From Podarcis muralis (Eukaryota): a stretch of 64,000 bases of DNA. Positions 23,634-58,780 of this stretch are shown here, piece by piece; position 1 is the stretch's first letter, and every line of letters starts with the position of its first letter. Below the pieces are notes generated by a model that was not told where the DNA came from, made no database searches, and worked only from the letters and a program-made list of their open reading frames with translations. The stretch lies in the NCBI RefSeq assembly GCF_964188315.1, contig NC_135669.1, forward strand, positions 42,408,001 to 42,472,000, given 5' to 3'. Position numbers and translations under genes: made by a program.

Positions 23634-23780
23634 CTGTGGCCCGGCACTGGCGCTCTCCACCTGAGCCCGGGTTTCCCTGGCGCAGCTTGCGACCACGGTG
23701 GGTCCCTGCTCCATCTCTTGCAGCAGGATGGTTTTCACCGATGAAGTGCCCAAGTCGATCCCCAGGACGCAGGCCGCCAT
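23634..23780 (-). CDS. SHPK: SHPK coding exon 1, sedoheptulokinase (MAACVLGIDLGTSSVK...AGPQ)
   Basis: FGGY-kinase LGIDLGTSSVK motif; strong Kozak gccATGG; donor cag|gtgaaa; acceptor upstream at 23847 implies a non-coding first exon. Confidence 0.95.
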
Positions 23781-24226
23781 GGCAGGATTCAAACCCTTGT
23801 CTTGAATTTTGGGAGGCATCTTCCTTATACAAAACCACCTGGGTCACTGAAGGGAAGGAAAGGGATGGTTTTGATGCTGTACAAGAGTGAAAAGTAGCTA
23901 TAATCTATGACCTGACATTGAGTAAGCCCAACTGATCAACGCAGCTTACTCCTGAGTAAACTTTTATTGAATGGTGCCATCAGCTATGCTATTTCTATTT
24001 AATTACTGCACAGTAACAAACCTGTATCCTACCTTGCCTGCGCGAGAGGCAGCTTACAACGAAGCTAATAAAAGAATGTAAGAACAAAACTAATTAAAAT
24101 ACAATTTAGAGGGAGGGAGGAAAACAGGTAGGTAAATCAATGCAAAGGAGGCTAAACGCTTGTCGCTGCTAACAACCCCTCCAACGTCAAAATGGGAGCA
24201 GAGTTAAGACGATGGAGCTAAAATAC

Positions 24227-24912
24227 TGTGATAGGAATTTTATGGTCTTAGATATATGGTAATGTTCATAACTGCACATACATAGATCAACACAGGAAGG
24301 CCAACCTGGAACCATTTTGATTCCTAAACTGACCAAATCCTTTCTCTGCAAGGTTAAACTGGAAAAGCCTCCCCATTGTCTCTTTCCTCACAAATCCTGT
24401 CTCAAGGATATGTCTGTTTGAATAAGGTGTGAGGCTGTGACCTGGCCCAGGAAATAAATATTTTACCACTACAAAAGAATGGCCAGGCTCCCCGGGAAAT
24501 CCAATCAAGTAACTTGCCAGACAGGAGATAAACTGTGACAAGAGAAAAACAACATTTAAATTTCTGTGATGTAGGTGGGATGTATCTGAGGGGTGGTCTT
24601 AGATTACACCCCTTCTGTGATGTATGCATAATGTTTCTGGGGGTGGTCTTGATCTAGATAATGGGAATTTCAAAAGTCTTTATAAGCTCTTGCACACCAT
24701 CTTTCTGGGTCCTCCTCCTCTCCTGCGTGTGAGGGGAGCACCCTGTTGCAACAGATCAATAAAGATCAAGCTTACTAGCTGCTTTGCTTCTCAATATTCT
24801 CTGGTTGGCCTCTGTTATTTTCTCCTACCAATAGGGAACCTATGTAAGGACTCTATATGGGCTCTTGGGTACCCCATAAAGGAAAAGGGTATATATATTT
24901 TTATTTACAACA
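24227..24912 (+). repeat. 5' LTR (686 bp)
   Basis: tgtgata...acaaca; TATA-like tataag at 24681; AATAAA at 24758; identical by eye to 30233-30918 (ORF translations identical at offset 6006). Confidence 0.93.
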
Positions 24913-24914
24913 GA

Positions 24915-24936
24915 TGGCGACCACGCACGAAGGGAC
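24915..24936 (+). other. Primer-binding site, tRNA-Arg(UCG)-like, with a CACG duplication
   Basis: TGGCGAC-CACG-CACG-AAGGGAC, 2 nt after the LTR. The recalled vertebrate tRNA-Arg-TCG 3' complement is TGGCGACCACGAAGGGAC. Confidence 0.75.
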
Positions 24937-25635
24937 TTTTGGTTACCCAGATTCTGGAAGCGAGGAAGGACTGGTTATCCAGCGCGCACCAGGCAGTTTG
25001 CCAGGAGGAATAACCAGTCTTCCATCGATCCCAGGGTCTGGAAATAACTGGAGGTTCAGCGGGGCTAACCAGAGGAAGCAACGCTTGATCAGGCCGGCCT
25101 TAAACAACCAGTCAAGAGATCCCGGGATCACCAGGACAGCGCTTGCGAAGTGAGTATGAGTAGGAAAAACGGGTAGTGGGGTGGGATTCTGAAAACCACA
25201 GCAAACCTATACTTCTCAAATCCTTACTTCTTTCCTCACTTTAACTCTTGAAAAATTGCCTTCTCCTCCTTTCTGTCCTCTTGATCTCAACACCAGCCCT
25301 AGCCCTTCGGAGTATGCCCAGGCACAAGGTTGTGTGTGATTTCTTCCACTTAATTCTATATGCCAACCTATTCCTTCGGAGTTTTGCCCAGAAAGGTTGT
25401 GCAATTTCTTCTGCACTGAAAACTATAACTCCCAGCGCAGCCGCACCTCTGCCATGGCGATCTTTGTTAGAAATGACCTGTGAACAGAGAACGCAAGGGC
25501 GCTGAATTCCTTTCCATCTTTCATATTCCAGAGTCTCAATCTGGCATTGCAAGTGTGCAAGCGTTCAGTAGGGACTCTGAGTTAGATTGTAAGAGGCAGG
25601 GAGGTTGCTGTGGGTTGTAGAATAGAGATTAAGTG

Positions 25636-26110
25636 AGGTATCCCCAGGTTTTTCCCCTCGGAGATTTGTCCAGGTGTCCCCAGGTTTTTCCCCTTCGGAG
25701 ATTTGTCCAGGTGTCCCCAGGTTTTTCCCCTTCGGAGATTTGTCCAGGTATCCCCAGGTTTTTCCCCTCGGAGATTTGTCCAGGTGTCCCCAGGTTTTTC
25801 CCCTCGGAGATTTGTCCAGGTATCCCCAGGTTTTTTCCCTCGGAGATTTGTCCAGGTATCCCCAGGTTTTTCCCCTCGGAGATTTGTCCAGGTGTCCCCA
25901 GGTTTTTCCCCTCGGAGATTTGTCCAGGTATCCCCAGGTTTTTTCCCTCGGAGATTTGTCCAGGTATCCCCAGGTTTTTCCCCTCGGAGATTTGTCCAGG
26001 TATCCCCAGGTTTTTCCCCTCGGAGATTTGTCCAGGTATCCCCAGGTTTTTCCCCTCGGAGATTTGTCCAGGTATCCCCAGGTTTTCCCCCCTCGGAGTT
26101 TTGTCCAGAT
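25636..26110 (+). repeat. 36-bp minisatellite (about 13 units) in the LTR-element leader
   Basis: Unit GGAGATTTGTCCAGGT(A/G)TCCCCAGGTTTTTCCCCTC; gives 12-aa periodic ORFs. Confidence 0.95.
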
Positions 26111-29100
26111 TTCCCCTTTTCCGGACCCTTCGGAGTTTTGCCCAGGTCCAAACCCCTTTTAATTGAAAATGGGTGCACCTCAATCAAAAGAAAAATAGTC
26201 CTCAGACCCCTGGCGTGAAAGAAGCCCAATTGGTGCTTACTTCCCGCCTGGACTCTGACAGAAACATTTTTCCTGTGTTTAAATTGTACTTAGGTAACAT
26301 CCAGCAGCTGCTTATCTTAAATGTCCCATCTAAAATAAAAATGCAAGCTTGCTCCTCTTAAAACCAGACAAAATGGAGAATGAAGTGTGCAAATGTTTGT
26401 TATTTGAGAGAGGCTCTAAAAGAGAGTTTTCCTCCCAAGTGGTAAAATCCTGTATACGTGCTACTTGTGTTCTGAAAGAAGGATTACCCCACCTCCTTCC
26501 TCTAGATTAAGTGAGGAGGGTGATTGTAAGTCTATCTAATGGTAAATGATGTTTTGTAACTTTTGAGTTTGTGAGTACACCTGTGTTCCAGTCTATTTTG
26601 GAATGTGAAGTTAACCTAATGTTTCTGCTGCAAAAGCCTAGTTGAGCCAACTGCTCTCTCAAGCTAAAATGCAGTGTATGTATTTCATTAAGCATATGCC
26701 TATGAAGGTATGGTGTTCTTTCTAAGAAAAATTGATATTAAATGTAGAGTCTTCCATGGCCAGCAAAATTCTATGAGTCCAGTCCAGATATCAGTCTCTA
26801 TAAGACTTCCTGGCCTCTTTTCTTAGAAAATGCCCCCTTGTTTCATTCTGTCTCTTTCAGGTTTTTTTCTTCTTTTCTTCTCCTTCTTTCTTCTGTGCCA
26901 GGTAAATTTACTCCCGAGTAAGCTTCCTTTAAAGGAAACTGCAAAAGGGGGGGGGCATAGATTAGGCTTACTATTCCTCTGCAAGTTCAGGAAAATTTGT
27001 TCACTTTTGTATTCCTTTTAAATCAAATCTATGGCTGTTTTAATTATTTGTGAGTGGTTATATCAATTGAATTAACTTTGCTTTATAAGGGATCCTCTCC
27101 CTATCTTAGGAAAAATGTTCACTTCAATCTTCCTTTAAAGATACTTTCTCTAGGAACTTGCACTCATTAGTCTAAGGAAGTAAACTCTCACTCAAACTAG
27201 CTTCAAGATCTGCTAAAAGGGTTCTGTATAAGTTGGGTACTTTTATTTTCCTCTTCATTAGTACATGATATGCGCATGGCTTGTGATAGGTGCATGGCTT
27301 GTGGTCTCTTCCCCAGTTGTGTCTGTGTACATAAGAATGTGTGTGTTTCTGGTTGTACAAATCTTGCTATGAACCCTGTATTTTGGGGTTGGACTAGATG
27401 ACCCCAGGTCCCTTTCAACTTTCCCAATTTGTGGCTGATGAGTTGAAATTCAGCCCAGATTTGCTCTTTGTTTTTAAAGGTGAGAGGTGAAAGCTGTGAT
27501 GTTTTGAAGCAGAACTGGTGATATCAGGCATTTGAGTGATTACAGTGTTTTTCATTTTGTCTATTATTTTGAATACTTGAATTGCTGAGTTTCTCTTTTT
27601 TGTTTTAAAAATCTAACCCTATTTTAAAAAACTACTCCTTACCCTTCCCTTCCCTTATTCAAATTCTAATTTAGCCAAAAGATGCAACATTTTCAATAGT
27701 ATAAAAGGTTTGCTGAGACATGAACTCTGCACATGCACAGAGGCTAGATCAGCTTACAAAGAGAGAAAGGAGGGGGGAGAGAGGAGGTTTGGAGAGCGTG
27801 CGCTGCAAGGAGACCATCAAAAGTCAAGAGGTTGCCAAGTTTCAAATCTTAACATGCCAAATTCTTTTCACAGGTAAATATCAAAGCACTCCTACTGTGA
27901 GTTCCTCTCTTGAGTAGTTTGCCTCCCCAATGGGATTTAAATTTTATAACAATTTTTTTTTGTTTGTGTATATGCCTATGCATTTTAGGAACAGCATTTC
28001 CTGACAGACTTCTCACATGAAATAATTTTCCCTTTTAACAGGATATGTGAACCCCATTAACAAAGTGTTTGTCCCTTCTTTTCTCCCACAGCACAAATGA
28101 TAATGAGGGGATGCAAACAGTGATTTAAATACTCTATAAAAAGTAATTGCATTTGTATTTCTTCTTGTCTTTCTTCCCTTAAAGCCAAACAGTCACTTTC
28201 TTTCTGTTCAGCAAAACAAGTCTGAATCCCTGCTATATTAGTTGATTTCCCTCTATCTCTTTGTGGTTTTGACACTTTTTTAGGTTACAAATAATCTGTT
28301 TTTCATTTATTAATCAGTTTTTCATTGGGTTGTTAGAATGGCAAAACAGGTTACTTCAGGTTTAATATATATATATTGTGTGTCTTAGCATTTATTTATT
28401 TTTGGTTCCTCATAGGTCATTGTGTGCATGTGCGTGTGCGTGTTACTTTTGGGACATGTCCATCACATGTTGAAAGTCATTTTTATCAAGTTCTACTTAT
28501 CAGACAGCACATGCTGAATTTTAAGCCTTTTTCCATTGTTTTCCCATTTTTTTTAGTCCAGTAGTAATCTGTGGTTTTGATAATATCTTTGTATTTAATA
28601 ATAATTCTTTTCTGAATCTGATGTCTTTGTGTCAAGTCCATTTTCATCTGAATGGTAATCTAATTTTTTGCTTTCTTTTTATTTTTTAAACTTTCTTGTA
28701 TTTTTTTTTTTTACAGTTCTCTTTCTCTACACGTGGAGTAATTTTTAATGTAATAATATGGGGGGGAAACAACAAAAACTAAGTGAAGGAAAGCAAACAA
28801 ACTTAGCAGATAATAACAGTAATTATATGAAAATGTGATAATAATATTAAAATGAGTAAAATGCTTAACATGCTAAGATTTTATTATTTGCAGCTAATAA
28901 CTCAAGGAGATTTTCTTGGGGAGGGGGCTTTTGCCCCTTCTTTTCTAACTTCTACAGATGTGCTACTACAGATCCGATGAAAAGCTTCGCCACCACAAGA
29001 CTATTACCTGCAGCAGCAACAACAGACGCCAAAGTTCTCAAAGTGGCCACAGCAATTTCTTTCAAAGGGGAAGTGGGGCTGACAAAGGGGGGAGGAGTTG

Positions 29101-30219
29101 AATTGCAAGGACATTTTCTCACTTTTGAAACTCAAGCCTCTGTGCTCCAGGATTCAAAAGATACATGCGTAAAAGATCACAATTGTGTCAAGATATGCAA
29201 CTGATATTTAATTAGTTTGTTTTGTATTATGTGTTATTATGTAGGAATGTTGAAATGTGTCTGACAGTGTGATTTCCACAAAGGGGGGGGGGCTATTTTT
29301 GTGTGTAATTGGTTTTATGTTTAATGTCTTATTCCTTACACCCCAGTGGAGGATTCTCATACATTTTATACTTTCTAATAGCTCACACTATTGTGTCGTC
29401 CAATGTTTAGATCAATTTATAACCACATTTCATTGTTCCACCTGGCACTATGCCAACCTTCCCTACCCATTTTAAAAAAATGTGCCAAAACTTGCTTTAC
29501 GAAGGAGAAGCTTCTAAGAAACATGAAGGTGGATATGCTTTGGTTTAGCAGGAATGATCCCCTATAGAGTTAAATTAACTAATTTGGACAAGTGCCCTTT
29601 TAAGAATGGTTGTTTTAACAGATTGGTTTGGAAAGTTGAGAACCATGGGCATATATAAATTATAATTGGACTCAGTTTGAATTGGGCAAGTGTATCCAGG
29701 CTGCAATTAGCTTTTTGGTCCTTTAAGTGCAAGTGAGCAACTTCCCATGAGTGCAAGACCACAGCCTATAATAAAATCCCATAGAAAGGCCAAGGCCAAG
29801 GCATCTCCCTCACGAGATGTCCAAACCTGTGCCAGCTATGGTGAATGCCAGGCGACATGGTTAAATGAAAGCCCCGAGGGGATTCAACAGACAGGATGTG
29901 TTGCTGTAGCACTATGTCAGTGTGAGACCACAGAAGAGCTAGCTTGACACCTGAGAAACACACAAAAATGGCGAAGGACAAAACACCAACTGCATTTTTC
30001 AGTCATTAGTGGACCTTCCTGCTAGGTGTAAAGCATAGAACACTATTGAGTAAATAGTCTCTCCCAAAGTGTTAGAATGTCACAAGTAATTTAGTAGCAA
30101 AATGCAACATGTGTTATTTTTATATGATATATTTATACAAAGACATCCAAAGACATCCATTTACAACATACGATGTTATTATTTGTGGGGCAAAAATTTT
30201 TAAGAAAAATTCTAGCCCC

Positions 30220-30232
30220 AAAGGGGGGATAA
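30220..30232 (+). other. Polypurine tract
   Basis: aaaggggggataa immediately before the 3' LTR. Confidence 0.75.
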
Positions 30233-30918
30233 TGTGATAGGAATTTTATGGTCTTAGATATATGGTAATGTTCATAACTGCACATACATAGATCAACACA
30301 GGAAGGCCAACCTGGAACCATTTTGATTCCTAAACTGACCAAATCCTTTCTCTGCAAGGTTAAACTGGAAAAGCCTCCCCATTGTCTCTTTCCTCACAAA
30401 TCCTGTCTCAAGGATATGTCTGTTTGAATAAGGTGTGAGGCTGTGACCTGGCCCAGGAAATAAATATTTTACCACTACAAAAGAATGGCCAGGCTCCCCG
30501 GGAAATCCAATCAAGTAACTTGCCAGACAGGAGATAAACTGTGACAAGAGAAAAACAACATTTAAATTTCTGTGATGTAGGTGGGATGTATCTGAGGGGT
30601 GGTCTTAGATTACACCCCTTCTGTGATGTATGCATAATGTTTCTGGGGGTGGTCTTGATCTAGATAATGGGAATTTCAAAAGTCTTTATAAGCTCTTGCA
30701 CACCATCTTTCTGGGTCCTCCTCCTCTCCTGCGTGTGAGGGGAGCACCCTGTTGCAACAGATCAATAAAGATCAAGCTTACTAGCTGCTTTGCTTCTCAA
30801 TATTCTCTGGTTGGCCTCTGTTATTTTCTCCTACCAATAGGGAACCTATGTAAGGACTCTATATGGGCTCTTGGGTACCCCATAAAGGAAAAGGGTATAT
30901 ATATTTTTATTTACAACA
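30233..30918 (+). repeat. 3' LTR (686 bp)
   Basis: Direct repeat of 24227-24912. Confidence 0.93.
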
Positions 30919-30949
30919 ATACGAAGTAAAAAAGCAGATCACAGGAGCA

Positions 30950-31650
30950 GAATCGGGTTGAAGAAAGTGAACTTTGGACCAATGTCCGAGGGGTCGCGCC
31001 ACACCCAAGATGGCGACCTCAGGACGCGACCGCCATCTTGGGTGTGTCGTTCCCCTTCAGGAGCTCGATGTGGGAAGTACAGTACGACGCACCGAAGGTG
31101 GCGGCCGCCATCTTGGGCGTGTCAGCTGCCTTCTTTCAGACCCGCCTTACTTCCTCACTTCCCCAAGCTTACCTTACTTCACAGGTGTCCTCAAATCACT
31201 ACTTCGCCTGAGAGGGCGGGAAAGAGAAACCCACAAAAAGATTTCACAAGCCGGGAAGGAGAGAGGGGGCGGGGGGAGAGCGGGGACTTTGCCGCACCCA
31301 AGATGGCCGCCGAGGGAGAGAGAGGAAGGCCTGAGGCGCGGCCGGCCATTATATAAGGCCCGTCTCCTTGGTGACGACGTGAAAGGCTTCCGTGGGAGCA
31401 ACGCCGGGGAGGGGAAAGACGGCAGTCGCGGGAACCGCTTGGCAGGAGGAGACGCCGCTCCCCGCCCCGCTGCGGTGAGTTATGGGGCCGTTGTGAGGAT
31501 TGCCAGGCGGCCTTTTAAGTTTATTTCTGACAGGGGGGAATCAGACCGAGGAGGACTTCGACTCCCAGTGTGCATTGCGGTGCGCTGCCGCCGGCATTGG
31601 GAAGCCTCGGGTGCCGCGTTGCATGACGGGGCTTGTAGTCTATAACAGCG
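30950..31650. promoter_or_regulatory. CpG-island bidirectional promoter of SHPK and CTNS, with inferred non-coding first exons
   Basis: CpG-rich; GC box 31265-31276; TATA-like tatataa 31350-31356; four CCCAAGATGGC (YY1-like) motifs; + strand donor g|gtgagt at 31475 (CTNS); - strand donor aag|gtaagc at 31172 (SHPK). Human SHPK and CTNS are head-to-head. Confidence 0.8.
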
Positions 31651-34214
31651 GTGCTTTCCCTTCAGGCGCCCTTTAACTTTTAAAATTGGGGCGCTTTGGT
31701 CTGGGAAGGGGGTCGTGTGTGAGAGAGAAGTGTCTCCCTTTCATTCCTCCCCTCCTCCTCTCAGCCCTCAGCAGCACCCTATGGCCACAGGGGGCATGAC
31801 ACCCCAATCCCCACCCAAGGGTGCCCGCACCATTGAGACCCTTCAAAACTTTATTCCCGCCTCCCCCAAAAAACAGGGATCCAGGGAATGAGACACTGAA
31901 GCAAGGGTCCGAGAGCCCCTCTGAGCACATACAGAGTTCAGTCCAAACGCCCACACCCAGCTCCTGTTTTCAACATCTCGCTTCTAAACCTGCCCTTCCT
32001 TACTTGTATTTTATTTTATTTTATTTTTTATAATTTTTTTATTAGGGTTTTTACAATATTACAAAATAGAAAAAGAAAAAATACAAATAAAAACAGTTAA
32101 AAACAGTCAATCTTTTTATCACTTATTTTTCATTTACTTGTTTCTTGGACCTCCTCATACCTCCCTTTTTTGTATTCCAGTTCTATTTATTAGTTCAGCA
32201 GTTTCTTTCCCTCTTTATTTTACCCTGATCTTGAATCTTAAATTATTATTACCTTGAATTTTTACTTCTAAAAAACCATTTTTTCATATTCTTTTATACC
32301 ATTACAGCTAGAAACCACTTAATTTCAATCCAACATCATTCTAACATTCATTGATTTTACAATATCTCTGTAGATAGTCTTTAAATTTCTTCCAGTCTTC
32401 TTCCACTGACTCTTCTCCCTGGCTTCCTTACTTGTATTTTAAGCCATACTGGCATTTTTTAAATACTCGGGGTGGGGTGGGGAATCTGCATTGAAACAGT
32501 GCAGTCGCTGGACGCTGAGGTGGTTGGCACAGTTGATGGTTTTGATAATGATAAAATGGTGATGATAATAAGTGTTTCTCCTGCTCACTTCCGCTTTTGA
32601 TGCGATTCAAAATTTGGTCAAGCTGTCATTTTTTTATGCTGGAGCTTTTTCATTTATTCTGGTTGCAATATAACTTTGCCCATGAGGGTGGTGGTGTTTT
32701 TAAAGCAAAGGTTAAATAATAATTATGATTATTCCTATTATTGTTATCATTTTCATCCCACCCATCTGGCTGGGTTTCCCCAGCCACTCTTGAGTGGCTG
32801 GGCTGTCCGTATTGGAATATGTCTCCTCTTATAAGTAAGCCCCATTGAGTTCAGCAGGGTAAGAGGGTATGGGATTTCCACCTCAATTTAATGGGAGCAT
32901 ATGATTTTGTACAAATGCACAATCATGACTGTTTGATGATGCAAGAGTCCGCATTAAGTGTCTGTATTGCTTCATTTTATTGTCCTTCAATTTGGGATGT
33001 TGTAAAACTTAAATATCTCTTGAGAAAAAGAGTTTTTATCCTCCTTTTTTATCCTGCCCTTTCTCCAAGGAGCTCAAGGTGGCAGGAATGTTATCATCAT
33101 CATCTCCCAACCCGGGATTCAGTCACATGCTGGAGGGTTGAGAAATTATAGTTGATTAGGAGGTATTGCACAACAAGCCCATTTCACTTCAAAATCAGGA
33201 CTTTCCTGCGACAAGGATGGGGAAATGCGCTGGTGTAGGCATGGGGTAATGATTGCTTGATGCGACACAAACAATTCGTAACTAATGCTCTATAAGCAGG
33301 TCATCGGAAGCCACTGTGTAGCCTTATGAGGCTTTGCCCTCGGGTGGGGAAAATATTGCGCCCGGGAAAGGGAGATGGGAGTCAACAGACACTCAAGGAA
33401 TAGTTTCGGAGAAAAAGCTTTATTTCTACCATCCATGAATTGGTAGAAGGAGCAAGTGTGATAACTCACAAAAACATGCGCCAGTTCACAGTCATTTGCA
33501 CAGAGTATATATTCCCCTTCCAATTCCCTCCCCTTTCTCCTCCCTCAGGAGTCCTGCCCCATGAGTTCCTCTGAGCATGAACAGAAAGCTGTCTTGGGAC
33601 TCTTGGACTCTTGGCACCCTTCCCAGGAAAGGGGAGTGAGAGCCAAGGGGTCGAGGAGCCCTGGTGGTTCAGCATGTCCAAAATGTTGCAACCGAATGAG
33701 ATAAGATTCAGTTCTCATTCATTCAGAGTCTATTCATTAGCTTTTTGAAGCCTTCTTGTGCTGATAAAAGTAACGTTTTTTCCTATGTACCAGCATCTTG
33801 TGAGAATCCACAGAAAATCTGTAGCTGTGGATTTTTAGAAGACAAAGGGAATTTTGGACAGTTTTGAGGCCTGGTGTGATTATTGAGTGGGGGGGTGACT
33901 TCGGGCCTAGGTGGGGTCACCTGTCCTCACCTTCCTTCAACTGTACACTTTTACCTTCTCAACAACCCTGCGAGGTAGACTGCTGAAAGACGGCGATTAG
34001 CTCCTCGATTAAGCTTTGCACCTGAGCTGGCATTTGAACCAAGGCCTACCTACTTTTAAGACTCATGCCTACCCCTAGACTAACATAATTTTTTCTATTT
34101 ATTTTTTTAAAAAGCTTAGTTTTGTCTTGGGACATCAGCCCTCACTCCCTGCCTCTCTAACCAGGACTTCCTCTTTTAACTTGCCGTTTTGCAGCTGCCA
34201 GCTGTTAGGAAAAA

Positions 34215-34278
34215 ATGGTGCACAGAATCGGCCTCTTCCTTCTGCTGGGCCTGTCTCTCGTGTCCTTGGGAGCCTGTG
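34215..34278 (+). CDS. CTNS: CTNS first coding exon, cystinosin signal peptide (MVHRIGLFLLLGLSLVSLGAC)
   Basis: Hydrophobic signal peptide; donor g|gtaagt; phase 1 matches the next exon. Confidence 0.88.
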
Positions 34279-40083: not shown

Positions 40084-40215
40084 GCCCAGAATCCGCTTCC
40101 TCGTGATCCACAGCAATGCAGTGAGGATCGTGGACCAGGTGATTGGCTGGATCTACTTTCTGGCTTGGTCAGTCTCCTTTTACCCTCAGGTGTTTGAGAA
40201 CTGGAGACGGAAAAG
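40084..40215 (+). CDS. CTNS: CTNS coding exon 5 (PRIRFLV...[24 protein letters not shown]), first PQ loop
   Basis: FYPQ PQ-loop motif; 132 bp. Confidence 0.97.
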
Positions 40216-41449
40216 GTAAAAAGGAAGCAGAGGGGTCTTGCTTTTGGGGTGCCCATGATACATTTATCAGATTTCCAAAAGGCTGGGGACCCTGTGCATA
40301 AGCTAAAATACAATTCCCACTCCCTTCTAGCTACCACTAGAGGGAGATCGCATATAGAAAAACAACTTTTATTTTTTGCTGTACAGACTTGCTTGTTCCT
40401 CCTTTGTCCCGTTTTCTCCTGGACACAGCAACTTTTGCCTCCCTTGGAAGGATCAGCCCCACAGCCACTGTGTCCCCCTCTCAGCTTCTCCTCTGGCCTC
40501 TGACTTTACAGCGGACCCCTCTTGCAGGCTTCATTCAGTCTTAAAATCTCTGCAGTCCTGAGGTCTAGGAACTTGACATTCTAGCATTGGTTGAGCAGAC
40601 AGGCAAGTTCAGAGTTGGCTGTCGCTGTGAGACGATGCACAGCTCCTGGAAGTTAGCCGATGGCATTTTCCCTGTTGGGCCAAAAGACTGCCTACCAATG
40701 TGTACATTTGAGTAACCTTTTGATTGATCTGAAAGGCCACCTCTTGCCCTACAGACCCTCTCAGGTGTTGAAATTGGGGAAAGGGGGGTCCCTCTTGCTT
40801 GTTCCACCACCCTCAGAAGCTCAGGCAGCAGTCCAGAACATTCTCTCTGGAGGCCCCAAAGTCAAATAACTCCCTCCCTATTGAGGTGGCTGACACCTTC
40901 AAGATAGTTTCTGGCCAATGCAGAAGGCTCCTCTTTACTCTGGCCGTTGTCACCTGAGATGCATATGGTTTTAGTGCCCACCCTGTTGCTGAGATTGTAA
41001 GTTGTTCAAAACAGTCCCTTGATCCTGTATTTTAAATTGTTTTTACCCACCCGTTCTGGGTCCTTAGAGTGAAGGGTAGGTAACAAATTTAAAATACTAA
41101 GTAGCAATAATTTTCTTTCTTTTTTTAATTTTTAATTTATACTTTTCCGATTTAGACATTTCACTGATTTTACAATCATTCTGACATTTCAAAACTTGAC
41201 TTTCTTCCCCCACTTTCTGCGGTTCTTTAAATTTACTTTTAATACCTTCGGCATATCCAAATTAACTAAATTTATTCATTTACTCATCTTGTTTAAATAT
41301 ATACTCTTATGAAACTGCCAATGTTTTTATCTGTTACAATTTATTCAATAAACCATTTCCATTCTTTTATAAAAATGTTGTCTTGATTTCTTATTCAAGA
41401 AATCAAGTCGTAATAATTTTCTGGGTTTTTATCCCCTGTCGCCTTCCAG

Positions 41450-41549
41450 TGTCGTGGGACTCAGTTTTGACTTCATCGCCCTGAACCTTACCGGCTTCAT
41501 TGCCTACTCGGTCTTCAACGTTGGCCTCTTCTGGGTCAAATCTGTGAAG
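41450..41549 (+). CDS. CTNS: CTNS coding exon 6 ([33 protein letters not shown])
   Basis: GLSFDF motif; 100 bp. Confidence 0.96.
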
Positions 41550-41638
41550 GTAGGTGGGAACCCCTCTCGTCCCTTCCATTGGGGCTTGGCCATTGCCTCA
41601 TATTCCCAGTTCTGACCAGCAGCCGCCTGCCTCCTTAG

Positions 41639-41758
41639 GAGCAGTTCCTGCGCTCCTATCCCAATGGTGTGAACCCGGTGGACAGCAACGACGTCTTCTT
41701 CAGCCTCCACGCTGTCGCTGTGACTCTCCTCATCATCTTCCAGTGCCTGATCTACGAG
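41639..41758 (+). CDS. CTNS: CTNS coding exon 7 ([25 protein letters not shown]...LIYE)
   Basis: [17 protein letters not shown] motif; 120 bp. Confidence 0.97.
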
Positions 41759-41899
41759 GTGAGCTTGGACCCTTCAGATCGCTCTCTCGGAAGCTCTTTT
41801 GAAGGTTAAGATCGTACACCTGCGCCTTTTCTGACTGCCGGCATGCCATCTATATTGGTTTAACTCAAAGGAAAAGCTTTTTCACTTTAGAAACCCTTT

Positions 41900-42290
41900 A
41901 GAAACATAGGTAGCCTTATAGAGTTGGATCATTGGCCCATCTAGCACATTGCCTGCACTGGCTGGCAGCAGCTCTTCTAGGGTTTCAGGCAGGGGTCTCT
42001 TCTGGCCCTCCCTGCCTCGGATCGAACCTGCACCTTCTGTGGGCTCTACCACTGAGCCACAGCCCCCTTCCTCCCGCCCAAAATAAAGCAGGATGCTAGT
42101 CCTCATGGTTCCGACTTAAGAGCAGATTTAAAGAGGAATGCAAGAAAGTGACTTAGGGTTGAGTGAGACCATCTAGCTCCGTGTCTACACTGACTGGCAG
42201 CAGCTCCCTAGGGTTTCATATGGGGGCTTGAATCTCGGACCTCCTGCCTGCACAGCAGATGCTCTAACCACTGAGCCAGGACCCAAAGAA
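41900..42290 (-). mobile_element. tRNA-SINE dimer with the same linker
   Basis: gatgctagtcctcatggttccgactt at about 42092-42118. Confidence 0.7.
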
Positions 42291-42369
42291 ACCCTCTACC
42301 CAACGTGCCAACTCCTGGTTCTGCATATCTCATTTGTAAGTTGTTTATGCTGATGATCTGGCCTTTCAG

Positions 42370-42540
42370 AGAGGGACCCAGAAGGTCTCCTGGGTGGCCG
42401 TTGGCTTGCTCGTCTTCGCCTGGCTCTTCGCCTTCACCACCTTGTCCGTGGCTGCTGCCGGGAAGATCACGTGGCTGGCCTTCCTCTTCTACTTCTCCTA
42501 CATCAAGCTGGGCGTCACCCTTGTCAAATACTTCCCACAG
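42370..42540 (+). CDS. CTNS: CTNS coding exon 8 (RGTQKVSW...[15 protein letters not shown])
   Basis: KYFPQ second PQ loop / lysosomal YFPQA motif; 171 bp. Confidence 0.97.
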
Positions 42541-42863
42541 GTAAGTGGGGATGGACGGACCCATTCTGAGTTTCATGGCTGGGCTTCGCCTCTGTCTGTC
42601 ATCAAGCCTCTGCCTCCTTTCTTAATTTCCATACCAAACAGTATTATGAAAGTACAGTGCAGGCAGCAATTGCTTTAGGCGTGTCCCATATGCGTGTGAC
42701 CGTGCGTACACGCCAGACCTGGAAGTGACCCCAAAACACCACAAAAAGGGACAGAGGGGGTGTTTGCAGGCTTTTTCAATGGGTGTCCCAATAATATGCA
42801 ATTTCACGCAAGCACACAGTGACCCAGAATGCAGCCCCTGCGCAAACAAAGGAGTCGCCTGTA

Positions 42864-43065
42864 CAGTGGTACCTCAGGTTACGGACGCTTCAGGTTACAG
42901 ACTCTTGCTAACCCAGAAATAGTACCTCGGGTTAAGAACTTTGCTTCAAGATGAGAACAGAAATCACGTGGCAGTAGCAGCGGGAGGCCCCATTAGCTAA
43001 AGTGGTACCTCAGGTTAAGAACGGACCTCCGGAACAAATTAAGTTCTTAACCCGAGGTACCACTG
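42864..43065. mobile_element. Tigger-like MITE (cagtggtacctc family), reverse orientation
   Basis: TIRs with TA flanks. Confidence 0.85.
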
Positions 43066-43582
43066 TAATGCTGATTAGGGTATAAATATAAACATGACTA
43101 TCCCCTCCCCACAAACAGAATTCAGATGACACAATATAGGATTAATAATCCTATATTTTAACCTGTATTTTAAATTGGTCCCCCCCCCTTATGTTTTTAC
43201 TGTGATTTTATTGGTGTTAGCTGCCCTGAGCCCGGTTCTGGTTGGGGAGGGCGGGGTATAATTTTTTTATTATTATTAATAATTAACATAATCATCTGAT
43301 ATACAATGATATAAATTACTACTTTTTCCTTTACAGCGTTCGTGGTTTTCTATAGCCTGACATCAAAACAAATAACGCCATTTAACTAGATCCACGTGTC
43401 ATTTTCCTTAATTCATTCAGTCGGTCCCATTTTCCCACACCATTTTGTATGTAGTTGGGCCTGATCTACCAGAAAACCAGTGCCAGCCTACCAAAAACAC
43501 GTCTTTTGAAGCTTGGGAGACCATCTTCCTTCCCAGTGGGAGTTCCCTTGCCCTGATGCCTTCTCCCTTCTCCCTTCTCTAG

Positions 43583-43700
43583 GCTTACCTGAATTTCCGC
43601 CGCAAGAGCACCGAGGGCTGGAGCATCGGAAATGTTTTGCTGGACTTCACGGGAGGCACCTTCAGCCTCCTTCAGATGTTCTTGCAGTCTTACAACAATG
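43583..43700 (+). CDS. CTNS: CTNS coding exon 9 ([25 protein letters not shown]...QSYNN)
   Basis: [18 protein letters not shown] motif; 118 bp. Confidence 0.97.
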
Positions 43701-43779
43701 GTAATTATTATTTTTATTGATAAATTTATTAGCAGCCGCCTTTTCAACGCAGCAACTCAGAGACTTAAAAAAAAAAAAA

Positions 43780-44280
43780 CCTACTGTACATACATACGTT
43801 AAAACCAGTGGGGGAATACAATAAAACATCCCACCCCATCAAAAAAGCCATGGACAGTTCAAAGGGGCTGGTTAGAAAGGAATGCCTGTCACGTGACACC
43901 TGAAGAGGGCACCATGTGAGCCTTTTTGGGGAGAGCATGCCACATACGGGGAGCCACCATTGAAAAGGCCCTGTTCTCGTGTTACCGCCCTCAGGACCTC
44001 TTCCAGAGGAGGCACACAAAGGAGAGCCTCAGAATGATGATCACAGATTCATATGAAAGGAGGCGATCCTTGAGGTATTGCTGTCCTGAGCTATTTAAGG
44101 CTTTATATGTCAAAGCCAGGACTTTGAATTGGGCCTGGAAACTAATTGGCGGATAGTGCAGTTGGGCCAGGATGGCATTATATTCTCAAACTGTCTTGCC
44201 CCTGTGTGCAACCTGGCTGCTGAATTTCTGGACCATCAGCCCCACATATGATGTGTTACAGTAATCTAACCTAGAGCTAA
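43780..44280 (-). mobile_element. Older L2-like LINE fragment
   Basis: Degenerate similarity to the L2 3' region (aaaggccctgttctc; gtcaaagccaggactttgaattgggcctggaaac). Confidence 0.55.
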
Positions 44281-45304
44281 GCAAGCTTGATCAAGCCAGA
44301 GGTTTGTCCTCCACAGTTCTGTTTTTTTTCTGATACTGACCTTTCACAAGAATCTAAAGATGGGCAAGGAGGTGGGAGATGATCTTCCTCATATGCTGCT
44401 GTACGCAGAGCATGAGTGGGGGAGCAACCTGTGGTCCTCCAGATATTGCTGGCCCCTATCACCCATGCTAGGTGAAGCTGATGAAAATATTGGTATTTAC
44501 TTTTTGCCATCTTTTTTTTTTTTTTTGAATGATTGTCGCATTTATTATTATACTAATATGCTGTTCACTTTGGGGGGCTGTCTTTGGGCCAAGAAGCAGT
44601 GAATAAACGAACCCTTAAAAACCCCGTAATCCTTTTCCATTCTTGAAACTTCTGCACTGGGTTTAGTCTTCCTCTAAAGCGGCAGAGCCCTGTCTGACCC
44701 TCTCATTCCCTTGCATGTATACACTAGGCCTAAGCTACTGCCCACTGCCCCATCCTGTCAGGGTGAATTCATACTGTGATGTCCCCCCTCTCTTTTTTAT
44801 AAAAACCCAATTATCTGCTTAAGCAGCTTGGGGCAGAAATCCTTTTTCTTTCCGTTGCACTCCTTTTAAGACATTTGTAACAGGGATGGGACATTCCAGG
44901 CACCACATACCATTGATGGTGTGGGGCACAGGGACAAAAGTGGGCAGTCCCAGGTGTGTTGCCTTTTGCACAGAACACTGCAATCCAGCCCCACAAGTCT
45001 GCAGTTTATAGAAACAGGCGCCCTGCCATCTAAGCAAACAAGTCCTCCTCCTCCTTTGGCCCATTCTGCCTAGGCAAAAGTGCTTCAGCAGAGGGGTGGA
45101 GCAGGGCTGCCTGAAGAGTGCCTTGGGGAAGAGTCCCTGGTGGCTAGACAGAGCTCTAGACTGCATTGGCCTGGAGTTTCCCCTACTCTGCTTTTAGAAA
45201 CCACAAAATATGATTGGGTTTGGGGGGGAGATGTGTGTGTGAATCTGTCAAGGGATGCCTTGTGTGAAGATGCAGGCTATTTTTATTCTTTGCCCTTTCA
45301 ATTA

Positions 45305-45505
45305 TTATTATTCGCCCTCCCATCAGATGTCAAGGAAATAAACAACTATCTGACTTTTAGAAGACATCTGAAGGCAGCCGTTTAGGGATGTTTTTAATGT
45401 TTGATGTTTTATCACTTTTTTATTATTAATTTTCTGTGGGGAGCCGCCCAGAGTGGCTGGGGAAACCCAGCCAGATGGGCGGGGTATAAATGAATTATTA
45501 TTAAT
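45305..45505 (+). mobile_element. L2-clade LINE 3' fragment
   Basis: ALPSDVKEINNYLTFRRHLKA..agccgcccagagtggctggggaaacccagccagatgggcggggtataaat. Confidence 0.8.
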
Positions 45506-45690
45506 TATACATTTTGGTATATCAGCTTTTCATTGTATGACCCCCAAGTTTCAGCTTCAGGTGGACAGGAGGGGTACAAATTTGGATAAGCTTTCGTGTC
45601 CCTTCCTCTTCTATCCTTTAATCTTTTCTCAACTTACTCTGTCGCTGATACACAATCTGTATTGTGTTCCTTCCCTGCTTTGCTTTTCAG

Positions 45691-45821
45691 ATGAATGGCG
45701 GCTGGTTTTTGGGGACCCCACCAAGTTTGGGCTGGGAATCTTCTCCATCATCTTTGACATTGTGTTCATCGTCCAGCATTACTGCTTGTACCGTCCCCAA
45801 GAATACGAGACTTTTGAGTAA
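45691..45821 (+). CDS. CTNS: CTNS last coding exon ([16 protein letters not shown]...[15 protein letters not shown])
   Basis: [10 protein letters not shown] motif; spliced CDS totals 1107 bp = 368 aa plus stop. Confidence 0.97.
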
Positions 45822-56042: not shown

Positions 56043-58780
56043 CAGTGGTACCCCGCAAGACGAATGCCTCGCAAGACGGAAAACCCGCAAGACGAAAGGG
56101 TTTTCTGTTTTGGAGGCGCTTCGCAAGACGAATTTCCCTATGGGCTTGCAACGCAAGACGAAAGCCCATAGGGAAATGCTGGCGGTCGGGAGCAAAGACT
56201 TTCGCCCACAGCCGGCCTTCAGAAGAGGACCTCTTCTGAAGGCCGGCGGGGGGCAAAAGTCTTTGCTCCCCCCCGCCTGCCTTCCCCCCGCCTGCCGGGG
56301 GCGATCTTAAAATGCTGGCGGGCGGGAGCGAAGCGTTCGCTGCCGACCCCCAGCATTTTAAAATCTCCAAGGGACAGCAGAGAAGTCTCTGTCCCGGGGA
56401 GGTTTTAAAATGCTGGGGGTCGGGAGCGAAGCGCTGCCGACCCCCAGCATTTTAAAATCTCCCCGTGTCCCGGGGAGGTTTTAAAATGCTGGGGGTCGGG
56501 AGCGAAGCGCTGCCGACCCCCTGCATTTTAAAATCTCCCCGTGTCCCGGGAAGGTTTTAAAATGCTGGGGGTCGGCAGCCCGACCCCCAGCATTTTAAAA
56601 TCTTCCCGGGACACGGGGAGATTTTAAAATGCTGGGGGTCGGCAGCGCTTCGCTCCCGACCCCCAGCATTTTAAAACGCTGTTCCGAAGGGGGGGGGTGG
56701 GGACACCTGCCCCAGCCGCCCCACTTCGGAAAGCTGTTCCGAAGCGGGGAGGGAGGGCGGGGACACCTGCCCCAGCCGCCCCACTTCGGAAAGCTGTTCC
56801 GAAGCGGGGAGGGAGGGCGGGGACACCTGCCCCAGCCGCCCCACTTCGGAAAGCTGTTCCGAAGCGGGGAGGGGGGGCGGGGACATCTGCCCCAGCCGCC
56901 CCACTTCGGAAAGCTGTTCCGAAGCGGGGAGGGGGGGCGGGGACACCTGCCCCAGCCGCCCCACTTCGGAAAGCTGTTCCGAAGCGGGGAGGGGGGGCGG
57001 GGACACCTGCCCCAGCCGCCCCACTTCGGAAAGCTGTTCCGAAGCGGGGAGGGGGGGCGGGGACATCTGCCCCAGCCGCCCCACTTCGGAAAGCTGTTCC
57101 GAAGCGGGGAGGGGGGGCGGGGACACCTGCCCCAGCCGCCCCACTTCGGAAAGCTGTTCCGAAGCGGGGAGGGGGGGCGGGGACACCTGCCCCAGCCGCC
57201 CCACTTCGGAAAGCTGTTCCGAAGCGGGGAGGGGGGGCGGGGACATCTGCCCCAGCCGCCCCACTTCGGAAAGCTGTTCCGAAGCGGGGAGGGGGGGCGG
57301 GGACACCTGCCCCAGCCGCCCCACTTCGGAAAGCTGTTCCGAAGCGGGGAGGGGGGGGCGGGGACACCTGCCCCAGCCGCCCCACTTCGGAAAGCTGTTC
57401 CGAAGCGGGGAGGGGGGGCGGGGACACCTGCCCCAGCCGCCCCACTTCGGAAAGCTGTTCCGAAGCGGGGAGGGGGGGCGGGGACATCTGCCCCAGCCGC
57501 CCCACTTCGGAAAGCTGTTCCGAAGCGGGGAGGGGGGGCGGGGACATCTGCCCCAGCCGCCCCACTTCGGAAAGCTGTTCCGAAGCGGGGAGGGGGGGCG
57601 GGGACATCTGCCCCAGCCGCCCCACTTCGGAAAGCTGTTCCGAAGCGGGGAGGGGGGGCGGGGACATCTGCCCCAGCCGCCCCACTTCGGAAAGCTGTTC
57701 CGAAGCGGGGAGGGGGGGCGGGGACACCTGCCCCAGCCGCCCCACTTCGGAAAGCTGTTCCGAAGCGGGGAGGGGGGGCGGGGACACCTGCCCCAGCCGC
57801 CCCACTTCGGAAAGCTGTTCCGAAGCGGGGAGGGGGGGCGGGGACATCTGCCCCAGCCGCCCCACTTCGGAAAGCTGTTCCGAAGCGGGGAGGGGGGGCG
57901 GGGACACCTGCCCCAGCCGCCCCACTTCGGAAAGCTGTTCCGAAGCGGGGAGGGGGGGCGGGGACACCTGCCCCAGCCGCCCCACTTCGGAAAGCTGTTC
58001 CGAAGCGGGGAGGGGGGGCGGGGACACCTGCCCCAGCCGCCCCACTTCGGAAAGCTGTTCCGAAGCGGGGAGGGGGGGCGGGGACATCTGCCCCAGCCGC
58101 CCCACTTCGGAAAGCTGTTCCGAAGCGGGGAGGGGGGGCGGGGACATCTGCCCCAGCCGCCCCACTTCGGAAAGCTGTTCCGAAGCGGGGAGGGGGGGCG
58201 GGGACATCTGCCCCAGCCGCCCCACTTCGGAAAGCTGTTCCGAAGCGGGGAGGGGGGACGGGGACATCTGCCCCAGCCGCCCCACTTCGGAAAGCTGTTC
58301 CGAAGCGGGGAGGGGGGGCGGGGACATCTGCCCCAGCCGCCCCACTTTGGAAAGCTGTTCCGAAGTGGGGAGGGGGGGCGGGGACACCTGCCCCAGCCGC
58401 CCCACTTCGGAAAGCTGTTCCGAAGCGGGGCGGGGGCGGGAACACCTTCTGAAGGCGGGCGGGGGGCGAAAGTCTTTGTCCCCCCTGCCTGCCTTCCCAG
58501 GGGCTTTTAAATCGCCTCGGAGAGCGGAGAAGTCCTCCGCTGTCCCGGGGTTTTTTAAAATGCTGGGGGTGGGAAGAAAAGCCCTTGTCCCCCCCCCCCA
58601 GCCTTCAGAAGAGGTCCGGGGACAGACTGTCCCCGGACCTGGTCTGAAGGCGGTTTCCCTAGGAACGCATTAATTGATTTTCAATGCATTCCTATGGGAA
58701 ACCGTGCATCGCAAGACGAAAAAACCGCAAGACGAAGAGACTTGCGGAACGAATTAATTTCGTCTTGCGAGGCACCACTG
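56043..58780. mobile_element. TcMar-Tigger-like non-autonomous element expanded by internal tandem repeats (TAX1BP3 intron 1)
   Basis: TA-cagtggtaccccgcaagacg ... cgtcttgcgaggcaccactg-TA termini, the same as the short copies at 13741 and 49676. Confidence 0.85.
56690..58440. repeat. 60-bp GC-rich minisatellite, 29 units
   Basis: Unit gggaca(c/t)ctgccccagccgccccacttcggaaagctgttccgaagcggggagggggggcg; one extra G near 57350. Confidence 0.97.

Follow-up and report, generated by a model that had tools for sequence, protein, structure and literature searches.

The 64,000-nucleotide window analyzed here (Podarcis muralis, NCBI RefSeq assembly GCF_964188315.1, contig NC_135669.1, positions 42,408,001 to 42,472,000 of the forward strand) carries a long terminal repeat (LTR) element at 24227-30918, inside the first intron of the sedoheptulokinase gene SHPK and beside the head-to-head promoter of SHPK and the cystinosin gene CTNS. 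The locus raises the questions of how recently the element arrived, by what machinery it was copied there, and whether it changes the expression of either gene. Our overall reading, to which we give a probability of about 0.7, is that of a very young, protein-less element of the endogenous retrovirus (ERV) type ERV1, lying antisense to SHPK, copied in trans and having no or a modest effect on SHPK.

Five runs (X1, X3, X7, X11, and X17) were informative at the insertion site. A precise empty site with one ATAC was present in X17, where letters 1-95 of a 254-nt contig (depth 4.06) fit window positions 24132-24226 and letters 91-254 fit 30918-31080, the joint being read from two separate contig placements and not from one printed joint. 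In X11, an unbranched contig of 1,617 nt fit up to 24226 and continued for 862 further letters; in X7, two allelic contigs each departed at 24226 with 48 further letters; and in X3, 155 unfit letters stood ahead of 30918. The empty site was the only form found in 4 of 4 independent runs (X3, X7, X11, and X17), which came from four studies. In X1, the flank contig (30.7x) ended at 24226, and the filled junction 24197-24251 was present at 18x with 0 differences. Because the bin depth of 37.5 needs a second branch of about 17x beside the filled junction, this animal appears to be heterozygous for the insertion; it may be the source animal and was not counted as independent. The insertion is polymorphic in P. 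muralis, and the empty allele is present in conspecifics, as a preliminary description of the locus had suspected in calling the element recent and possibly polymorphic. Contigs lose rare variants and X17 is shallow, so that the presence of the empty allele is shown and a low frequency of the filled allele is suggested rather than measured.

The structure of the element agrees with a recent arrival. It measures 6,692 bp, with its sense on the + strand as assigned from the primer site at 24915 and the polypurine tract before 30233. The 5' LTR (24227-24912) and the 3' LTR (30233-30918), both starting with TG and ending with CA, showed 0 differences over 686 bp in pairwise comparison, bearing out the earlier impression of identical repeats. 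The ATAC target-site duplication, also noted before, is intact at 24223-24226 and 30919-30922 and corresponds to the single ATAC of the empty-site contig. The primer-binding site, matching tRNA-Arg(TCG) and holding an internal 4-nt duplication, lies at 24915-24936 (+). It is followed on the same strand by a leader block at 25436-25630 in common with coding ERV1 relatives (about 72 to 76% over the BLAST-aligned part), a candidate packaging region, then by a tandem array at 25636-26116 (36-bp unit, 13.3 copies, 96% matches), an AT-rich non-coding interior at 26117-30219 with no open reading frame (ORF) of note, and the polypurine tract at 30220-30229. Direct TG...CA repeats with a target-site duplication, a tRNA-complementary primer site and a polypurine tract are the features by which LTR retroelements are recognized. 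The 0 of 686 differences bound the LTR divergence at 0.44%, corresponding to an age under 0.4 to 2.2 Myr if substitution rates between 5e-9 and 1e-9 per site per year are assumed. This dating is weaker evidence of youth than the polymorphism; the insertion is very recent.

Long frames within the element arise from the 36-bp tandem array only. A tblastn comparison with the element used 66 distinct open-frame translations, taken from 50 Gag/Env loci of ERVs in the same genome, and gave no match; blastn of the element against these 50 loci gave only one 43-bp match and no coding remnant. Because of the array-only frames and the absence of tblastn matches, the element is regarded as non-coding; it has none of the gag, pol, and env frames of an autonomous ERV. 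A 4-bp target duplication, which marks Class I (gamma- or epsilon-like) ERVs, was found in 12 of 12 paired copies including that of the window. The element has no pol, and its class placement is suggested by relatives with the common primer site and leader block, which carry Gag_p30, MLVIN_C, and TLV_coat. An Rfam search returned 0 matches at E 0.1 or better. Judged by its sequence, the element is non-coding, non-autonomous, and probably of ERV1 type, and it resembles VL30/ETn-like elements.

The element belongs to a dispersed family. The LTR search gave 43 matches from 40 scored of 3,981 first-look candidates, and at least 37 copies bear the internal region. In the 11 other paired copies picked as closest to the window element, the numbers of LTR substitutions were 0, 0, 1, 0, 0, 0, 0, 0, 1, 10, and 1, i.e., none in 7 and at most one in 10 of the 11. 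Each of the 11 has a 4-bp duplication and the same purine tract, is free of nested inserts, and lacks long ORFs apart from those of the array. Identical LTRs are common in the family, and the window copy is therefore not singled out by its own. The closest LTRs among the copies examined differ from the window LTR by at least 9 substitutions, common to both window LTRs, so that the direct parent is not among these copies. Many dispersed young copies without coding capacity are what characterizes VL30- and ETn-like families. No paper on this family appeared among the titles and abstract starts returned by literature searches on Podarcis or lizard ERVs, and the family may already be named. CpG-island-like sequence was present in 5 of 36 family 5' flanks, against a background of 20 of 71 window tiles that is inflated by GC-rich repeats and allows no valid enrichment comparison.

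Some related loci are rearranged. In one family copy (L041, G000:C13:10881099-10888888), two LTRs on the same strand enclose an inverted segment that comprises a third LTR, its primer site, and most of the interior. Three loci (L151, L159, and L160) have the same non-coding interior (71 to 93%) with a different LTR type, which has only LTR positions 384-599 in common with the family at about 80% and suggests LTR swapping between lineages.

Other loci with the perfect primer site include coding proviruses with Gag_p30, protease (RVP), RVT_1, RNase_H, rve, MLVIN_C, and TLV_coat domains. Their LTR pairs were 99.8 to 100% identical in 4 of 4 examined, their purine tract was similar to that of the element in 3 of 4, and they have the primer site and a leader block of about 140 to 200 nt (71 to 76%) in common with it. 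These coding ERV1 relatives are the likely helpers, as far as their sequences indicate, and packaging and integration would have occurred in trans, the coding retrovirus family of the same genome supplying the enzymes by which the element may have been copied in. Locus L157, considered as the closest coding relative, was rejected; its ORFs are of copia and long interspersed element (LINE) type and belong to other elements. Excerpts of two papers describe integrases of the murine leukemia virus (MLV) type as directed by BET proteins preferentially to CpG islands and start sites (PMC4027182, PMC4121521). Given this preference, an insertion at the margin of an island calls for no particular explanation, and a target bias to promoters through an MLV-type integrase is presumed.

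In the genome-wide searches, none of the 150 Gag_p30 matches that were scored, out of 564 candidates, had a stop inside the domain; more than 100 were near-identical in score with open frames of 644 to 652 aa, as in a large, very young gamma-like ERV expansion. Of 78 TLV_coat matches, 20 clustered within 2.2 Mb (G000:C7:1.17-3.36 Mb) with open frames of 329 to 496 aa; the cluster may have arisen by tandem amplification or be a family of env-like genes that was co-opted.

The primer site divides the family. Its perfect 18-nt form, complementary to the 3' end of the tRNA-Arg(TCG) gene, occurred 29 times, 9 of them behind a window-type LTR (>90% alike); the other 20 were excluded from the family count, their LTR being <90% like that of the window or absent. 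The form with the 4-nt duplication occurred 28 times, always behind a window-type LTR end (exact matches only in both counts), and thus 28 of 37 family copies (G000-wide set, L094-L150) bear it. A tree was built from the 450 nt that follow the primer site in 37 rows, 33 of them distinct. Placing the 9 perfect sites on it takes 9 changes, of which 4 are forced by well-supported branches; 500 of 500 shuffles were as low. The LTR tree was similar with 8 changes, two sets of identical leaders hold both primer-site forms, and the window copy's own leader clade is duplicated in 9 of 9. A tRNA gene matching the duplicated site gave 0 matches in the assembly, which may be incomplete. The pattern is most simply explained by a founder that had the duplication, followed by repeated tRNA-templated reversion. 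Perfect sites (9 of 37) fall below a 50:50 expectation with p 0.003 under the assumption, which does not hold, that copies are independent. The pattern would look no different if co-packaged copies had recombined or repair had been biased.

The same primer-site pattern in mouse ETn/MusD is ascribed, in excerpts of PMC7472051, to escape from 3' tRNA fragments. By analogy, the imperfect site of the lizard family might serve escape from tRNA-fragment silencing, an idea we hold tentatively and at somewhat worse than even odds. A priming-versus-silencing trade-off has been proposed for mouse ERVs (PMC7472051, in part). With the imperfect site as the majority form and perfect sites resembling repeated revertants, the trade-off becomes testable in a reptile, and this pattern across the family may be of greater interest to specialists than the single locus.

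The gene context was taken from protein matches and RNA contigs. The first coding exon of SHPK lies at 23634-23846 on the - strand, with in-frame ATGs at 23819 and 23780 and the acceptor AG at 23848-23847; its part 23634-23819 matches P. muralis sedoheptulokinase P0001 at 97%, and seven SHPK coding exons, spanning 23819 to 13254, were placed on this strand. The second ATG is preceded in frame by an N-terminal extension of 13 codons (23780-23819), which is found in P0001, too. Non-coding exon 1 of SHPK occupies 31173-31350 (-), its right end, the start, not being mapped. An RNA contig of X17 (depth 13.3) fits 31173-31473 after 28 unfit letters, and one of X15 has 27 unfit letters at the same place before 31173. 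The X17 depth is again 13.3 at 23843, over a stretch computed as about 23819-23848 that accounts for the 28 letters. The joint of exons 1 and 2 was deduced from this matching depth and length across two separate contig placements and not from one printed joint. RNA contigs confirm on this basis the splice from 31173 to 23846, and the acceptor and donor predicted earlier are both used, the last intron base being 23847 and the first 31172 (X15, X17). The intron measures 7,326 bp filled and 630 bp empty, as had been estimated when the element was said to nearly fill a 5' untranslated region (UTR) intron; the filled form is 11.6 times as long. SHPK exon 1 lies to the right of the element and not to its left, at a distance of 254 bp (about 250 bp in the preliminary description), and the other flanking exon is 380 bp away. 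The element is antisense to SHPK and sense to CTNS, as stated before.

CTNS runs on the + strand. Its non-coding exon 1 (31320-31474) has an approximate start, the X23 depth being 0 at 31283 and 20 at 31377, and is spliced from 31474 to the first coding exon at 34195-34278 (ATG 34215) by a GT..AG intron seen in X23 (16 reads), X15, and X17. Six cystinosin family matches at about 40127-45791 correspond to the membrane-domain exons. A CpG island at 31000-31600 (GC 0.62, CpG observed/expected 0.84 to 0.87) contains both first exons; it is uninterrupted, and neither it nor the exons overlap the element, which lies entirely to their left. It holds four AAGATGGC motifs at 31007-31307, which we take to be YY1-like, a GC box at 31266, and a two-way TATA-like sequence at 31349-31356. 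Contigs of X15 and X17 are unbroken over both first exons (31173-31474), and because of this continuity the 5' ends of SHPK and CTNS abut or overlap. In human, CTNS and CARKL presumably share a promoter. The two are described as neighboring genes in the excerpted text of PMC6437787. Within CTNS intron 1, a 30-nt insertion relative to the window was present at 31888 in X15 and X3, and one contig of X15 traverses the intron. Farther right, positions 56595-58673 form a GC-rich tandem array of about 2 kb with open frames of >600 aa on both strands, probably a minisatellite.

No effect, or a modest lowering of SHPK, is the likeliest consequence of the insertion, its mildness being a prior expectation and not a reading of carrier RNA. 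Young antisense intronic ERVs lie in the tolerated orientation (PMC1794541, excerpt), and no donor-like site scoring 8 of 9 or better occurs in the element on the SHPK strand. If there is an effect, the likeliest route would lead through SHPK, in whose lengthened intron RNA polymerase II (Pol II) would meet an AATAAA about 260 nt past the donor. A second route would be spread of methylation to the island edge, and an LTR-driven gain of CTNS would be less likely. None of the three RNA runs (X15, X17, and X23) carries the window haplotype: at 31442 and 31445, 30 of 30 X23 reads differ from the window, and the contigs of X15 and X17 do likewise, so that these animals are probably without the allele. 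X23 showed a depth of about 0 to 1x over 30906-31207 and no joint from the LTR to 34195 among the 15 of 17 joints shown, but for the same reason it is no test of LTR read-through.

Several observations weigh against our reading. That 4 of 4 independent runs showed the empty site alone points to a rare filled allele, which purifying selection would explain as well as youth. The SHPK strand of the element carries 7 AATAAA versus 1 in the native intron. At 254 and 380 bp from exons, the element lies deep in the 2- to 5-kb near-exon zone in which full-length LTR elements are depleted, according to PMC3088655; there, 19 of 44 polymorphic mouse elements in the zone gave chimeric transcripts, mostly minor, and several strongly affect the gene. 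As to the supply of enzymes, the LTRs of the coding relatives match the element over only about 50 bp at 77%. RNAalifold gave 58 pairs for the leader block, 15 of them with two-sided change, and most of the covarying pairs depend on the window row alone, which makes their support weak.

The best-surviving alternative, still unlikely at roughly one chance in six, is a clear SHPK hypomorph, in which premature polyadenylation, mis-splicing, or antisense transcription from the LTR cuts SHPK mRNA and leaves CTNS unaffected. The AATAAA signals, the first of them at 30906-30911 within the 3' LTR and 262 nt past the donor, speak for it, as do the one acceptor-like site at 26939, the nearness of the element to both exons (PMC3088655, excerpt), and the transcription of related family copies in X23, seen as depth over the LTR. 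The X23 LTR reads lack the window copy's bases at 30440 and 30665 and are uninformative on it, the strand of the element read by SHPK has no strong donor, and the antisense orientation counts the other way (PMC1794541, excerpt). Polyadenylation sites of this kind are, moreover, mostly silenced when U1 occupies a strong donor close by.

It is improbable that the 3' LTR alters both genes as a promoter or enhancer, the possibility raised in the preliminary description. The LTR is intact, points at CTNS, stops some 400 bp short of where CTNS approximately begins, and does hold the motifs listed there, i.e., a TATA-like TTTATAAG at 30685, an AATAAA at 30764, and both kB-like 10-mers. The kB-like motifs proved not above chance: against the consensus we took for kB sites, the LTR had 0 exact matches and 6 with at most one mismatch, the shuffle mean was 2.84, and 14% of 300 shuffles were as high. 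The CpG island is also left whole. A transcript that started in the 3' LTR and reached the exon 1 donor of CTNS would contain 6 upstream ATGs. The frame beginning at 31010 meets no stop in exon 1 and, once exon 1 is joined to 34195, runs across the CTNS ATG in a different frame; for this reason LTR-started RNA is predicted to interfere with CTNS rather than boost it. Equally improbable is the boldest form, a still-spreading element with a silencing-dodging bulged primer that would act as a working cis-variant, truncating or dampening SHPK and interfering with CTNS; if true, wild wall lizards would have a segregating two-gene metabolic allele. An assembly artefact of collapsed repeats or homogenized LTR copies can be dismissed as highly improbable, since polishing can homogenize identical repeats but X1 contigs contain the filled junction without a single difference, the target-site duplication agrees with the single ATAC of the empty site, and the LTR is at least 9 substitutions from its nearest relatives at both ends.

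The young antisense ERV1-type insertion, a natural allele that is now well documented, marks an ERV1 burst still under way in the wall lizard, and heterozygotes would offer an allele-specific test of a full-length antisense LTR element placed 254 bp from a head-to-head promoter.

Among known systems, the locus resembles the intronic IAP and ETn insertions near exons of Trpc6, Kcnh6, Wiz, and Adamts13, which are likewise full-length LTR elements segregating in the depletion zone (PMC3088655, in part). Unlike those cases, it lies in a 5'-UTR intron by a head-to-head promoter, and any effect on transcripts is hypothetical. Mouse VL30 is a non-autonomous class I ERV and shares with the lizard element an LTR-bounded non-coding interior, a gamma-type purine tract, a 4-bp target-site duplication, polymorphic intronic insertions, and reliance on a coding gammaretrovirus-like helper, which is deduced here. 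A VL30 in an agouti intron is not by itself the cause of the phenotype, according to an excerpt of PMC6677723. The lizard element differs from VL30 in its reptile host, its tRNA-Arg(TCG) primer, and its 36-bp leader tandem array, and the likeness is one of described features. Mouse ETn/MusD, of class II, offers the parallel of a non-coding element moved by a coding partner, as presumed here. Its primer is of the Lys type (PMC7472051, excerpt), unlike the lizard family, whose primer-site defect consists of a 4-nt duplication and whose coding relatives are of MLV type. A further parallel is in the primer site itself: in ETn/MusD the commonest form is imperfect and perfect ones are scattered as apparent revertants (PMC7472051, excerpt), to which the lizard counterpart is 28 of 37 imperfect sites and 9 changes for 9 perfect rows.

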